From positions 1,321,481 through 1,385,480 of the forward strand of contig MU004232.1 of assembly GCA_010405405.1 (NCBI GenBank): a stretch of 64,000 nt of DNA, given 5' to 3'. Source of the DNA: Microthyrium microscopicum (lineage: Eukaryota). The position numbers were made by a program, and so were the translations under genes. Shown here piece by piece: positions 3,464 through 12,883 of the stretch; the first letter of the stretch is position 1, and every line of letters begins with the position of its first letter. Below the pieces are notes generated by a model. It saw nothing but the letters and a program-made list of their open reading frames with translations. It ran no database searches and was not told the origin of the DNA.

Positions 3464-4309
3464 TGGTTGGTTTTTGTTGATGTTGTTAGCTGGATGGGTT
3501 GGTTCATGTCTCCATGTCCTTAATTTTCTTTCTGTTGTTTGGTTGGATTTGAGTACTTTTTGCGGTTTCAGTCGATTTGTTTATGTTGTTTTAATATCTT
3601 TTCCACCGTCTGCGTTGCTATGTTTCCTGTAATATTTGATTGTTGATACTGTTGGAGTCGGCACTACCGTAGAGTCAAACGTCAGAGAATGAGTCCCTGT
3701 ATTTGCTATTAGTGTATATAGTCTATGAGTTTGGGCGATCATATGAAATCCATCTTCCATTATGTGATGCCTCGATAGGATAACAGTCAGCCTCATGAAT
3801 GCTTTGTACCGCAGCAAGTATTTTCTCTCCCCTCGAGTGCTCTGCCTCCCATCAAGTGCTATCCCCGAACTAAGACTCGTGTTCTCAGCATTGCTTCATC
3901 ACCCAATGGCCACAAACTAGACAAACGTTAAAATGCAATGAGTAGCAACGTATATTTCAGACGTGGTGGCCCCGTGGCATAAAAATCGCCATCAGAGATT
4001 GAGGGATGAAGTTGGGATTCGAGAGCACGATAAGCCAAATCCACGAACCGAGAATCAAAGACTCCGCTTCGCCTTCAGCAAGGCAAATCAAGCCTTCAAC
4101 TATCGCATTCCTGATTTACTTGGATGATCAGCATTTTTAAATCGTTGTAATATCAAGCTCTCCTGCACGTGGTGTTGCTTGGAGTTGAAGTTGTTGTCGG
4201 CTTGGAAAAAGTGGCCGTGCGTATCATCCTCACCACCAGCAGCAGGCCATGCTTCGACCCTTGCACCCTTGGAATCTTGCCAGGCCGGTTTCGTTGCGGT
4301 GACATACGC

Positions 4310-4393
4310 ATGAGCTTTCAACAACCAACACCAACCCGAGACCTCTGGTCATCCATACCCTCTCTTCCCTGCCGGATCCACCTAGGCCATTGA
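4310..4393 (+). other. Candidate upstream ORF (27 aa) before the sugar transporter
   Basis: ATG at 4310 to TGA at 4391-4393. It is the last ATG in any + frame before the transporter ATG at 4914. Whether it lies inside the mRNA is unknown. Confidence 0.3.
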
Positions 4394-4913
4394 ACTCGTG
4401 CTTCTTCCTTCCCAAACATAAATAGCCTACTTCTCGCTCTCCGGTGCTTATAATTCTCCTTTGGCTATCAAGGCCTAGTGGAGTCTCGTGGCTGCTCCAA
4501 GCTAGCCCGCTATCATCACGATTCCTCCCTTCAGCAACTCGAGGAGGCCTGCCAACATACCCCTCCACACCCTCTCCTCCCAATCCCAATCCCAGTCCCA
4601 GAGCAGCGAGAAAGAACGCCTCCGCCGCCGCTCCTCCTCCATCCACTCTGACGACGCATCCGACTTTTCCAGCTGGTCTGATACAGGCGACCTCGTCGAC
4701 CAGCTCGCCGAGCAGGAAGATCCACTCTCCATACGACTCGAAGAGAACCTACCAAAGAGAGCTCGTCAAGGAAAGCGCGTACACTATCAGTCGGACGAGT
4801 ACGATTCAAGCAACGAGAAGCAGTCTGGCGTCGTCAAGAGGAAGGAGGATATTCCTATACCTAACCCGCCACCAAGGAGAATCTCGCCTGGCGAGAGGTT
4901 TCTTGTGCGGATA

Positions 4914-6854
4914 ATGGCTCCTAATGATGGGCCGTCAAGGCTCCATGGGCTTCATGGGAAGAAGTTGATGTATGAGGAGCTTTTGGTCCTTATCGAAGCT
5001 GTTGGCTGACTTGATATAGTTACTTTACAACGGTATTTGTATCTTTGGGCGTTTTTCTGTTTGGCTATGATCAAGGCGTTATGTCAGGTATAATTACGTA
5101 GGTTGACTGATATCGCGATTACTTTTCAGAGCTGACACATTACAGAGGCACATATTTCAAAGATTACTTCAACCATCCCTCCGCAGCAGAAATCGGTACA
5201 ATGGTCGCCATCCTAGAAATCGGCGCTTTTATATCATCCTTAATGGTTGGAAAAGTTGGTGACATAATTGGAAGAAGAAAAACCATCATGTATGGATCTA
5301 TAATATTTGTTGTCGGCGGTGCGCTACAATCATTCTCCAACGGCATGCCAATGATGATGCTGGGACGTATCATTGCCGGTTTTGGTGTTGGTATGCTCTC
5401 GACTATCGTGCCAGTCTACCAATCCGAAATTTCACCTCCCCATAATCGTGGAAAGCTGGCATGCATCGAATTTTCTGGAAATATTGCTGGCTATGCCACA
5501 AGCGTTTGGGTGGACTACTTTTGTAGTTACATCAAAAGCGACTATTCTTGGAGAATTCCCTTGTTTATGCAGGTTTTCATGGGTAGTCTGCTTGCTGTCG
5601 GCAGTTTACTCATTCTCGAATCACCAAGGTATGTTGAAGAGGAGCTGTAGTGTTTGAGATGAACTAATTCTAATCAGATGGCTGCTTGACAACGATCACG
5701 ACGAGGAAGGGATCGTTGTGATCGCCAATCTCTACGGCAAGGGCGACATTCACAATCAAAAAGCCAGAGACGAATACCGCGAAATCAAGATGAACGTCCT
5801 CCTCGGACGTCAAGAAGGCGAGCGATCCTACTCCGACATGTTTACAAGATACCGCAAGCGAGTATTCATTGCCATGTCAGCACAAGCGCTCGCTCAACTC
5901 AACGGTATCAACGTCATTTCATACTACGCTCCTTTGGTCTTTGAATCAGCTGGCTGGAGAGGCCGGCAAGCCATTTTGATGACGGGTATCAATGGTATCA
6001 CATATCTCCTCGCAACAATTCCTCCTTGGTACGTGGTCGATAAATGGGGCCGTCGACCGATTCTGCTCTCTGGCGCTGTCACTATGATGCTCTCTCTTTC
6101 CGCTATCGCATACTTTATCTTTTTGGATGTCAATCTCACGCCTACTATGACCGTTGTATTTGTCATGATATATAATGCCGCCTTTGGTGCATCATGGGGA
6201 CCAATCCCTTGGTTATATCCACCGGAGATCTTACCACTCAGTATTCGAGCAAAGGGCGCAAGTCTTAGCACTGCCACGAATTGGGCATTTAATTGGCTGG
6301 TTGGAGAACTCACACCGATTCTGCAAGAGTGGATACAATGGCGCTTGTATCTGCTGCACGCATTTTTCTGCGCTGTATCCTTTGTCGTTGGTAAGTTTAC
6401 ATACGCGCATGACACCCAAAGTGCCTACTAATAATGCAATCTAGTATGGTTCATCTATCCTGAGACAGCAAATGTCCGCCTAGAAGACATGAACTCCCTC
6501 TTCGGCGACGCAACATCCGTTATGCCAACGCCCGAAACTCTCGCCGAGGCCGAATCACTCTTTGGCTCTCAACGCTCACCGGTGCCATCGCTAAACATTG
6601 GTGCCGGCCAGTCTGGCATCACCGCCGACCACGCGATTCCTGGTCTGGACATTGACCCACCAGGTCAAGTATCGAATGACGCAATCAACCGAGGGAGCGC
6701 AACGGTCAGACCAGCTGTCGATAGAACACATAGTAGTGGCTCAAGACAGGAGGGCCTTGGAGGATGGATTTCGAACATGGTGGGGCGCAACAGAGGAAAC
6801 TCGGACGAGGCGAAGGGCGACTATTCACGAGTTGGGCAGGACGATAGAGAGTAG
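4914..6854 (+). CDS. MFS sugar porter family monosaccharide transporter (true start probably upstream at non-AUG codon 4518)
   Basis: Motifs FLFGYDQGVMSG, GDIIGRRK, GRIIAGFGVG, VPVYQSEISPPHNRG, QLNGINVISYY, VDKWGRR, WLYPPEI and YPET. Introns at about 4970-5019, 5098-5145, 5629-5678 and 6391-6444. Confidence 0.92.
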
Positions 6855-7484
6855 AGTAGACAGATCTTTTGCCATCGTATGGGATCTTTTCTTCTTTTTG
6901 GTTCGGCCCATTGAGGCATGTGTGATTATTACTAGTATCTAGACACGATTAGTGTGACCAGACAATTTTATGACATATTCTAGAGTCGATTATATGGAAT
7001 GACAGCGTCCTTTCTGATCAGCGCAAAGCTGTGGATATAAAATGCAAGTGCTGTATATATTTTGATATACATGTATGCATCAAAATTCAGGAGAAGGCTG
7101 AGCAAGGGGAGACAAGGATTGGTACAACAACATATTCGTGGTCTGTGCACCGAATCCTTAGAGTCGTTCTGAAGTTCTGGCCTTAGAGCCTCCACCAACA
7201 TCCCATTGACATGTCGAGTTGCTAATCTTAGCTGCAAGGCACTCTCCCTTCTTTCTGATTTCAACAACGCCAGCTGGCCAGAAGTCAAGTCATCCTCTGG
7301 CTTTCTTCTCTTTCTCTTCTACAACCTATTTTCTCGCGCATCTCTCCTTGTTGCAGAGGACGCGGCCTCTCCTTCGTTTCCCTTCATTTTGCTTCTTCAC
7401 CATCTCCCATAATTTCACCATCCTTTCGACTGTCGTTTTTCTCATTTCCGAGCAGTGGGAATACTGCTAGGCCTATAAATCACC

Positions 7485-9880: not shown

Positions 9881-10250
9881 GCTTGCTATGGGAAAGCGAT
9901 ATAGAGATATCAGTTGTTGTTTGGCGTTTTGGAACATCTTGTTGTTTCCAGGTGCTGGTGTTTCTCGATGGCGGGAGAAGACAAAAATTCACTCTTGTAT
10001 TACTCGCTCGAACTAGTAATGATTGGTCTGGCGTTGGGATTCTTGTGGATGTAGCATATTTAGGGAAATCTTGAGGGTGTCGCGTGTAATATCAATTTTG
10101 CATTGACATTCTTCTCTACGTATCGAGAGTAGTAGACAGTTGAAAGTGCCTAACGAAACTATCCTCATCACACTGTCTTATCTCAGCCGTTGAAGGCCAT
10201 TTGCTCTAGTCTATCAAGTATCAAGCGTCATAAACCATCACGCATCACAT

Positions 10251-12883
10251 TCACTTCCTCCGTCCCGGAAACCTCTCATTCATCTCCCTCTCCATCTTCA
10301 CCAGCCTCCCATACTTCTCCCGTTGCTCCTTCGTCCAGTCCTCTCTATCCCCCTTCTCCGCTTTCAAACCAAACGCGCCCAGCGTACTATTCAACTTACC
10401 CAACATCTCCGCATACTCGTCCTCCGCCTCACTCTGCACCGTAATCGCCCCTCCCGCACCCACCGTCCACACATCCCCTTCCTCCGTACTATCCCCATCC
10501 CAGCGACAAGCAGTCCTTATCACCACGCTGAAATCCCCTCCACCTCCAACATCCAGATATCCCAGCACGCCGGAGTATATCCCTCTTGGCCCATCTTCCA
10601 GCATAGAGAGGATCTCGCATGACCTTCGTTTCGGTGCACCGGTCATGGAACCTGGTGGCAGAGAAGATGCTAACACATCGATGCCTGTTTGACCACTGTC
10701 CTGTGGAAGTGCACCCTCGATGACGGAGACGAGTTGGTAGACGGTCGCATATTCTTCTATCTGCATTAACTTACTCACCCTAACATTGCCTGGCCCCGCG
10801 ACACCGTGTAAGTCATGGCGTATTAGATCTGTGATCATCAGATTTTCGGCGCGCTCTTTTGAGCTGTTTAAGATTGTTTCTGCGTCGGCGCGGGATATAC
10901 CTGGCCCTTTGCGGACGGTGCCTTTTATGGGGCGAAACTGGCATGTACTGGGCTTTGTGGTGGGGCGGGACCAGGAGAGGAAGCGTTCTGGTGAGGAGGA
11001 GGCGATTGTTATGGCGTCGTTGGGGGTGTGGATGCGGAGAAAGGCGGAGAATGGGGCAGAGTTTGTGTGGGAGAGGGATTTGAAGAGGGTCAGGCCGGAG
11101 GATAGGGGAGTGGTGTGGGTGGAGGGAGTGTGGATGGGGGTGGTGGATGTTAGGCAGAGTTCGTAGGATGAGCCAGTGCGGATGGCGGATTCACAGGCGA
11201 GGATTTTGGTGGTATATGATATCCAGTCAGGGGTTATTGTTTGTGGTAATGGGCTGGAGTGATTGGGTTTGTTCGTGATGCTGTTGGTGTTGGGCTTTTT
11301 GAAGCTATTCGATATACCATTCGTGTGGCCATTTGTATGGCCGTTCGTGAGGCTACTCGTCGGCTCATTCCTGAGACCATTCGTGTGGCCATTCGTCGAA
11401 CCGTTCGTGAAGTCATTGGAGTGAGGGGCACAGTCTAGATGATGGCGTAGCTGATGAATCGTGTGTTGAATCCATTCGTCATCCTCAGGTCGTATTGATT
11501 GCACATAGACTGTGTCGGTGAAGTGATCTATGACAACGCTGCGCTGTACGAGTACGAGGTTCACGTCCGGTCGAACAAATCGTCCTCTTGTGCTAGACTC
11601 CATGGTACAATCGGGATGAGTGTTGATAGTCCTGAGACCAGCTTCGTAAGATATAAATCCTGCCAATCCGCCCCAAAATGGTGATTCGGAGGCGCCTTGA
11701 TTGGAATGGATATGCGCCATGAATTCCTCCAGATAGGCAAATACATCAACGTTGTGTGCTGCCTGCCGAACAACATCTCGAGTTTTTCTACTAAATATGT
11801 TGACTTGTTGCGAGTGGACGGAGAACTGGATATGCAAAGCGTCTTGATCAACAATGCCTACTATACTGAACCTTCCTAGCTCTTCATTAAATAGTTTCCC
11901 GTCCGCTTGTTTACCAGATCTTAAAATGATGGCTTCATCATCAGACAGATTCAGTGCTTGATATAGTTCGATAGCAGTCAATTCTGGTAGCTGTAAAATT
12001 TGCCCTTGAACTGTCTTTGTACTTTTCAGAGCCTCAACGGCTTTGAGCTGATCTATATGTGATGCTGCAAGGCGAGAGCTCATATGCTGATACTCATCAA
12101 GCTTTCGTTGGTTCCATGACCTTGGAACGGGTTTTCGATTCACTCGTCGTGGGTTCTGGTTAAGCCATTGCATTGCTGACTTCCACCACGATGAGATAAT
12201 TCTATTTCCTACATCATCCGTGCAGATAGATTCCGGATGGTATTGGACGCCCCAGAAAGGCTTCTCCGTATGCCGAGCGGCCAGTAGGACAGGCCCATTT
12301 CTCGAGTCTTTGAAATCCCAAGCCAGAGGTCGAACTTGCGGGCACGACTGTCTTATGCTCCAAGGGTCCAGATCAGCAGCGCTACATGGATTATCCATCT
12401 TGATGTGTAACGAATGATAGTTGGTGACTGTGAACTTTGGAAAGCCTTGAAAGATGTCCATATTGGCTGGTTGTACCTCACTGACCACACCGTGTCTAGG
12501 CATATCCAGTCTCACCACCTTTGCTAATTAGTACGACGCTTCTATAAACAAGACCTTCGTACCTTTGCGCCAAAAGCCTGACACATATCTTGAAATCCAA
12601 GACATATTCCTAAAACTGGCAATATATCTTCGCCTTGAAGCCGCCATAAGTACCGTATTGAGCCAACATCTTCTGCACAGTTTGGATCACCCGGTCCAGG
12701 TCCAGCTACTACCGCATCGAAATATCCGAGATATTGGTGAAATTCATCTTCGCGGCTTGTATATTCGTCATGACTGATGACTTCGACGTCGATATCCAAA
12801 GAAGTTTTGAGAAGGGCGATGATGTTGTTGGCAAAAGAGTCGTATGCGTCGATATACAATATTCTTTTTCTTATAATGTCCAT
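10251..12883 (-). CDS. ABZ1: Aminodeoxychorismate synthase (PabA glutaminase + PabB chorismate-binding fusion)
   Basis: GATase motifs IDAYDSF, GPGPG, LGICLG and QYHPES. Chorismate-binding motifs SSPERF, RPIKGT, KERAENLMITDLIRHDL, PPGSMTGAPK and GAGGAIT. Intron 12519-12562. Confidence 0.93.
11317..11410 (-). repeat. Degenerate 12-nt coding repeat (NGHT-like units) inside ABZ1
   Basis: ccattcgtgtggccatt occurs at 11317 and 11377. Translation: NGSTNGHTNG...TNGHTNGHTNGISN. Confidence 0.75.

Follow-up and report, generated by a model that had tools for sequence, protein, structure and literature searches.

Where does translation of a sugar porter begin when its reading frame is open far 5′ of the first AUG that the frame contains? 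The question is raised by a stretch of 64,000 nucleotides (nt) of Microthyrium microscopicum DNA (GenBank assembly GCA_010405405.1, contig MU004232.1, positions 1,321,481 to 1,385,480 of the forward strand; hereafter the window, numbered from its first letter), in which the frame of a transporter gene is open from a TAG at 4503-4505 to a first in-frame ATG at 4914. An initial annotation, made from the letters of the window, had drawn attention to this open frame and to the lack of any + strand ATG in the gap, and had proposed that an ACG at 4518 starts an N-terminal extension, with leaky scanning to the AUG yielding two isoforms. Inspection of the frames and a script agree with it on the frame and the gap. 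The best explanation of the evidence set out below is, with fairly high probability, a start one codon further on, at the AUU of 4521, with leaky scanning past it to give a long isoform of 710 residues and a short one of 579. The features on which the argument turns are these:

4503..4505, + strand: in-frame TAG that closes the frame upstream; mostly CAG in orthologs
4518..4520, + strand: ACG, a near-cognate codon with A at -3, the start proposed in the initial annotation; not conserved
4521..4523, + strand: ATT, predicted conserved AUU initiation codon, in the context CACG-AUU-CC
4521..4913, + strand: predicted N-terminal extension of 131 codons, without Met; Ser-, Arg-, Pro- and acid-rich
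4914..4916, + strand: first AUG, predicted start of the short isoform, in the context GGATA-AUG-GCU

The transporter frame extends from stop to stop over 4506..5009, and by script the + strand is without ATG in any frame from 4310 to 4914. Of the 1169 ATG-to-ATG gaps in the window, which average 54.8, none is longer than this one of 604 nt; the next longest, of 570, is at 10049-10619. By itself the open frame proves little since T makes up only 17.6% of the stretch and another + frame stays open over the same 408 nt. It is on its own weak evidence, and what lifts the extension above chance is, from the comparisons that follow, its conservation. The second frame, +1, comprises 162 codons (4426-4914); it arises from the scarcity of T and is not evidence of dual coding.

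With the translation of 4506-4969 as query in a search for longer proteins, 135 matched the extension at the cut-off of E <= 0.01. The best 120 of these do so at 42-61% identity, and nearly all of the 120 are sugar porters of ~700-770 residues named by their sources as Dothideomycetes; the block RRPANIPLHTLSS was located by pattern in 103 of them. The residues placed ahead of this block in the gene models vary between species and include no conserved Met. An ortholog from Aureobasidium pullulans is among the matches. An exhaustive search of representatives found 149 clusters (50% identity) that match the extension at E <= 0.001. By the names that the sources give, the matching classes are Dothideomycetes, Arthoniomycetes (Chrysothrix, present already in the first search), Sareomycetes (Sarea) and Leotiomycetes (Venustampulla), the latter two genera coming from a second protein search. 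A metagenome scan added 80 loci, in 67 of which the motif was located, i.e. in 68 of 81 sequences when the window is included. Removal of identical stretches left 57 distinct loci, and the 41 of these with a complete and typical extension made up a codon alignment.

The 68 located loci all lack an in-frame Met in the span that leads from the closest in-frame stop 5′ of the conserved block to the block itself. Pairs of the 41 aligned loci differ on average by 0.337, 0.284 and 0.597 at the first, second and third codon positions, and the median ratio of nonsynonymous to synonymous divergence (dN/dS) of the extension is 0.18 (417 unsaturated pairs of 820; 0.27 in the 24 pairs of which the window is a member). 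Several codons are used at 22 of the 24 invariant residues, the exceptions being a Trp and the Ile of the putative start column. Judged by these patterns the extension is real coding sequence under purifying selection in the frame of the main open reading frame (ORF), as the initial annotation had supposed of a peptide that lacks an AUG; more than 100 proteins and the 57 distinct loci bear this out. That the region is instead an untranslated leader conserved as RNA or DNA, or is coding on the opposite strand, has very little probability. Leaders are often AUG-depleted, and the stretch is open in the second + frame and in long frames of the minus strand; but dominance of third-position variation, the low dN/dS, the synonymous variety at invariant residues and length differences that are multiples of 3 only all count against it, as does the outcome with RNAalifold, which on -60 to +62 relative to the ATT in 38 sequences returned 0 pairs and no consensus structure.

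Given that the extension is coding, which codon starts it? In-frame near-cognates of the window are ATC 4512, ATC 4515, ACG 4518 and ATT 4521, and the ACG is as the initial annotation described it, with A at -3 and flanked by ATC and ATT. It is preceded by CATC and has A at +4; the ATT is preceded by CACG and has C at +4. Across the 57 distinct loci the ACG column holds AAG in 18, AAA in 14, ATT in 6, ACC in 6, AAT in 3, AAC in 3 and a few others, with ACG itself in 2, the window and L018. In 54 of the 57 the codon after it is ATT, preceded by A at -3. The proposal of ACG as the start is not supported as it stands by this comparison. Orthologs had been expected to show a conserved frame, a bias to synonymous change and a conserved near-cognate in place of ATG, and they do, the near-cognate being the ATT and not the ACG. 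Filamentous fungi prefer a CA[AC][AC]-start context, which the conservation of C(-4) and A(-3) at the ATT fits: the 38 sequences of the nucleotide alignment all have A(-3) and ATT, and nearly all have C(-4) and C(+4); across the 57 loci, C is at +4 in 52.

The start-column Ile is ATT in 41 of 41 loci of the codon alignment; at two other invariant Ile columns the split between ATC, ATA and ATT is 33/4/4 and 15/10/16. The frame-blind pattern A-N-N-ATT-[CT]C has exactly one match in each of 54 of the 57 loci, and every such match is in frame with the PANIPLH motif, at nine distances spanning 9-48 nt and all multiples of 3. Sequence 5′ of the ATT has a different character. The motif GGCTGCTCC is present 29-35 nt before it in 44 of the 57 loci and falls in all three frames (12, 21 and 11 loci), which points to non-coding sequence there. 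L005/L007, the window, L032 and L061 have an in-frame stop a mere 4-6 codons 5′ of the ATT, and in L005/L007, where the sequence is TAA GCC GCC GCC AAA ATT, the ATT is the sole near-cognate before the conserved residues. Together with the conservation of the ATT, the frame-indifferent motif and the close stops indicate that coding constraint begins at the ATT and that what precedes it is non-coding, so that AUU 4521, and not ACG 4518, is most likely the conserved start.

In M. microscopicum itself the ACG may add to initiation, and a stronger version would have it as the main start there, with products that differ by one residue. Its C at -4 and A at -3 are in its favor, as is the general superiority of ACG over AUU as a near-cognate in fungi. 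The adjacent pair ACG-AUU is used in Cryptococcus LeuRS, according to the relevant part of PMC7049704. The stronger version is nevertheless unlikely: ACG is confined to the two loci mentioned, and its column includes codons that are not near-cognates at all (AAA in 14 loci, AAC or AAT in 6), so that family-wide constraint sits on the ATT. As an aside, ORF-called protein fragments P0137, P0143 and P0167 begin ‘MP’ exactly at the Ile-Pro column and P0236 begins ‘MIP’; all four are more distant members.

Initiation at AUU 4521 also has to be considered from the perspective of ribosomes that pass it. The span from the ATT to the conserved Met holds 4 ATGs in 18,588 nt from 44 distinct loci, where 197 +/- 12 are expected from mononucleotide shuffles and 104 +/- 8 from codon shuffles. 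Of the remaining 13 loci, 12 have the conserved Met as the first ATG after the ATT and one, L023, has a single out-of-frame ATG; overall, 52 of the 57 lack an ATG in any frame between the two. The conserved Met codon is present in all 57, and in the 44 its context without exception combines G at +4 with a purine at -3, which is A in 35 loci and G in the other 9. Such depletion ahead of an AUG in strong context is the signature expected if most ribosomes bypass a weak start and must reach the AUG, and the leaky scanning and paired isoforms of the initial annotation fit with it.

Scanning 43S complexes would thus first meet the weak AUU 4521, with the C at -4 and the A at -3 that fungi prefer, directly preceded in M. 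microscopicum by the in-frame ACG. A minority would initiate at the AUU to yield a protein of 710 residues with an N-terminal arm of 131. The remainder would scan ~390 nt, presumably kept AUG-free in every frame by selection, and initiate at the strong-context AUG 4914 to yield a transporter of 579 residues without the arm. (Joined from the ATT, the exons amount to 2133 nt, i.e. 710 codons plus stop, with the first Met as codon 132.) An alternative accepts the AUU start but makes the long form the sole functional product, with Met 4914 as an internal residue. The Met is indeed within a conserved block, I-M-A-P-x-D-G-P-S-R, but a weak AUU necessarily leaks, and the paucity of ATG in all frames (5 in the 57 loci) together with an AUG context kept in 44 of 44 loci is hard to explain unless ribosomes must reach AUG 4914. 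This alternative is quite improbable.

For dual initiation the mRNA has to include the leader and extension uninterrupted, and evidence on this comes from run X1 (its type is a guess), whose assembled contigs were compared with 3700-7300 of the window; X1 cover is low or lacking at ~4117-4303 and 6944-7211. A contig of 2448 nt is colinear with the window over 4304-4969, after which four GT..AG introns are removed (4970-5019, 5098-5145, 5629-5677 and 6391-6444, after shifting of the cuts). The contig derives from spliced RNA since it skips the four introns, and in it nothing is spliced into the leader or extension, nor is there an upstream ATG exon. The gene is a sugar porter of the major facilitator superfamily (MFS) and its mRNA leader is unspliced. 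Pfam Sugar_tr (PF00083, MFS) matches exon 3 with 131.7 bits (E 5e-38) and exon 4 with 172.4 bits (E 2e-50), against a gathering cut-off of 22.3, and matches the ortholog L034 with 366.9 bits. The transcript-based features are:

4304..6943, + strand: transcript-covered stretch, from one spliced contig of 2448 nt (run X1), no differences
4310..4393, + strand: upstream open reading frame (uORF) of 27 codons, within the transcript contig
4914..4969, + strand: rest of exon 1, from the transcript contig
5020..5097, + strand: exon 2, from the transcript contig
5146..5628, + strand: exon 3 (Sugar_tr), from the transcript contig and Pfam
5678..6390, + strand: exon 4 (Sugar_tr), from the transcript contig and Pfam
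6445..6854, + strand: exon 5, with the long C-terminal tail and the stop codon, from the transcript contig and the frames

In three further taxa mRNA contigs are colinear with genomic loci across the leader, the extension and exon 1, with four introns removed thereafter; the pairs are L034/L032 (100% identity), L061/L062 (99.7%) and L017 and L019/L024 (~97%). From the ATT, seven spliced metagenome contigs of 2.4-2.7 kilobases can be read without a stop for 695-714 codons, and their leaders measure 121-306 nt. The initial annotation had considered a missing upstream exon unlikely, with spliced reads from an upstream ATG exon as what would overturn it, and colinearity in the window and in the three other taxa upholds that judgement. 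It had also noted no CTRAY branch point before the AG at 4504-4505; neither this nor a GTRNGY donor was found in 4300-4520. A rarer transcript, with an upstream exon or an alternative transcription start, could in principle supply an AUG and make non-AUG initiation unneeded, and many annotated orthologs are modelled with upstream exons. Those exons differ, however: the modelled N-termini share nothing with one another, and several models are fused to neighboring genes. With the colinear contigs of the window and of the three other genome-matched pairs, the lack of branch point or donor consensus, and in-frame stops 4-6 codons 5′ of the ATT, a rarer transcript of this type is highly improbable as the source of the extension.

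Several considerations weigh against initiation at AUU with leaky scanning. AUU is generally a weak initiator, and three of the 57 distinct loci are without the ATT, L029 and L040 having ATA and L020 having ATC. Loci share ancestry and counts of them are not independent events, yet the median dS of 1.85 is near saturation. Assembled contigs cannot reveal the true 5′ end of an mRNA, or whether shorter mRNAs that start 3′ of 4521 dominate. TATA-like strings between the uORF and the hairpin motif described below (ATAAATAG at ~4417-4424 and TATAA at 4449-4453) would allow transcription starts nearer the ATT and could drive shorter transcripts without the uORF. The case is one of sequence comparison and assembled transcript contigs only, and from these we infer both the decoding of AUU as a start and the ratio of the isoforms.

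The non-coding sequence just 5′ of the AUU has an element of its own, for which the relevant feature is:

4490..4507, + strand: conserved non-coding motif GGCUGCUCC-N4-YAGCC, a possible hairpin of 5-6 base pairs; starts 31 nt 5′ of the ATT

In full, the conserved nucleotide element is GGAG...GGGCUG-CUCCNNNN-CAGCCC, at 4479-4508 of the window with GGAG at 4482-4485. The hairpin motif (4490-4507) occurs once in the window, where 0.03 is expected by chance. GGGCUG can pair with CAGCCC around an 8-nt loop beginning CUCC. In 38 sequences 91.6% of cells pair, compared with 26-53% when the partner is slid, and at 4 of the 6 pairs there are changes on both sides, e.g. GGGUUC/GAACCC in L018 and GGGCUA/UAGCCC in L043. 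The window has TAG at 4503 where CAG is usual, and one G-C pair of the hairpin thereby becomes G-U. When 12 leaders were folded singly the hairpin was present in nearly all, though with modest z-scores (-0.3 to -2.1), and Rfam has no match to 4250-5000. The hairpin is probable rather than proven. Pairing of the GGAG with the CUCC would form a pseudoknot with it; both segments hardly vary. Two other ideas for this region were discarded. A CUG inside the hairpin does not serve as the start, as it falls in all three frames, and a hairpin between CCUCC just after the AUU and GGAGG of Arg-Arg codons is lost in lineages with CGC-AAG.

What might an upstream hairpin do? It might act from the exit-channel side of the scanning 40S subunit, either because it refolds once the complex has passed or because it binds a protein, eIF3 or some other, and its action would mirror enhancement by downstream structure (START; see below). 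That it is a new cis-element which boosts or regulates weak near-cognate initiation, or that the N-terminal proline of the long isoform is a Pro/N-degron, is a speculative proposal and on present indications a rather doubtful one. Further 5′, the nearest upstream ATG directly precedes a stop (AUG-stop, ATGTGA[CT]C) in 18 of the 57 distinct loci, ~120-166 nt 5′ of the ATT (including L003, L008, L012, L014, L016, L022, L026, L028, L030, L032, L039, L048, L051, L053 and L061), and is inside the spliced mRNA contigs L022, L034 and L061. Start-stop elements are reported in 10.1101/2021.07.26.453809 and PMC13338717. The window has none and has the 27-codon uORF (4310-4393) instead, the peptide of which is not conserved among orthologs.

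Turning to the arm itself, its abundance of Ser, Arg, Pro, Glu and Asp suggests a disordered cytosolic tail with short linear motifs. The conserved ones are the RRPANIPLHTLSS block, SDFSxWSDTGDLVDQLAxxEDPL and RKEDIxIPxP. No Pfam family matched the arm, and its best score against ESM Atlas, 0.77, is uninformative. A protein kinase A-like RRxS site had been suggested as part of a regulatory role, but [RK][RK]xS is kept in only 13 of the 31 sequences examined, with RxS in 30 of them, and the suggestion falls in that form. N-terminal tails of yeast nutrient permeases act in trafficking or turnover, and by analogy the arm may control either in the transporter. With C at +4 in the great majority of loci, the proline that would follow the initiator residue is conserved; after Met removal the long isoform could expose it, and a Pro/N-degron could tie stability to carbon status.

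Extensions that start with a near-cognate have precedents, though the one named in the initial annotation, on a Neurospora glucose transporter, could not be traced: the main text of PMC5487733 is without the word ‘transporter’. In the portion of PMC7049704 that deals with it, the N. crassa sugar transporter rco-3/sor-4 is cited as regulated by uORFs and not by an extension. The more general point, that conserved non-AUG extensions exist, is established by fungal cpc-1, whose N-terminal extension, in the account of it drawn on here from PMC5487733, is conserved and includes a conserved AUU. Transporter and cpc-1 extensions have in common that they are in frame, appear to be under purifying selection, have conserved near-cognates including AUU in near-optimal context, and are associated with annotations that leave the start unresolved. 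In cpc-1, from the same account, there are several candidate near-cognates, and access to the main ORF is gated by two AUG uORFs. The transporter gene, which encodes a membrane protein, differs in having just one conserved AUU and an AUG-free route from there to the main AUG.

Closer in arrangement are Cryptococcus ArgRS (AUU) and LeuRS (adjacent ACG-AUU), which have dual-isoform starts in the sections of PMC7049704 consulted. The transporter resembles them in its AUU in strong context, in its ACG-AUU tandem in the window, and in leaky scanning to a strong downstream AUG with two proteoforms, the latter being predicted for the transporter. The Cryptococcus extensions, on the same authority, are mitochondrial targeting peptides with ribosome profiling support; unlike them, the predicted transporter arm is of 131 residues, acidic, Ser-rich and on a polytopic transporter. 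PTEN also has an AUU-initiated, N-terminally extended proteoform, found through a phylogenetic coding signal in the 5′ leader, though it is mammalian and a soluble protein (PMC4892431, in part). For START, i.e. structure-assisted non-AUG initiation, the pertinent part of PMC11165317 requires a stable structure 3′ of the start, with an optimum at +20 to +26. The likeness is that a conserved RNA structure would adjoin a near-cognate start; the difference is that the transporter hairpin precedes the AUU and ends ~11-16 nt 5′ of it. A stable structure ~14-26 nt downstream was not found in the RNAalifold analysis of 38 sequences referred to above. Among solved sugar porters STP10, GlcP, GLUT3 and XylE align with core residues 152-597 of L034 (E 4e-50 to 3e-36), and all of these matches leave out the N-terminal arm and the C-terminal tail.

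A literature search that excluded supplements turned up no paper describing non-AUG initiation for this transporter family or for Dothideomycetes, and ‘SNOG_01228’ was in 0 papers. AUU-started extensions as such are already known; the transporter case is unusually well supported, with an upstream element that is possibly new. It would be a clear example, to the standard of comparative genomics, of a membrane transporter with an AUU-initiated proteoform, conserved in at least four Pezizomycotina classes. Stringency of start codon selection could set the ratio of arm-bearing to arm-less sugar porter and so link translational control to regulation of a nutrient transporter. The fixed-distance upstream hairpin is a candidate new modifier of near-cognate initiation.

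There is also a practical consequence. A start at the ATT would explain over 100 public gene models that have unrelated, invented N-termini or fusions, and would be the correction for them. That such extensions are usually mis-annotated, another point of the initial annotation, is apparent from public models, which carry unrelated N-termini or fusions to upstream genes. Pfam families that accompany the fusions are PF00443, PF03641, PF08610 and PF12271 (P0005, P0013, P0032, P0096-P0115, P0028, P0265 and P0269), with PF00443 or PF03641 leading several of the models, and some fused or mis-modelled members have names such as ‘Ribulose bisphosphate carboxylase large chain’. Fusions and odd names probably follow from forcing an ATG start.

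Two observations concern the ends of the region. The C-terminal tail of the transporter (~135 residues, 6445-6851 of the window) matches no Pfam family and is conserved, with a G-G-W-I-S-N block that is nearly invariant in ortholog alignment A3. On the other side, at 3700-4116 of the window, another X1 contig, of 6067 nt, ends at 4116 with adapter sequence after it, and is probably the end of the mRNA of the upstream gene.

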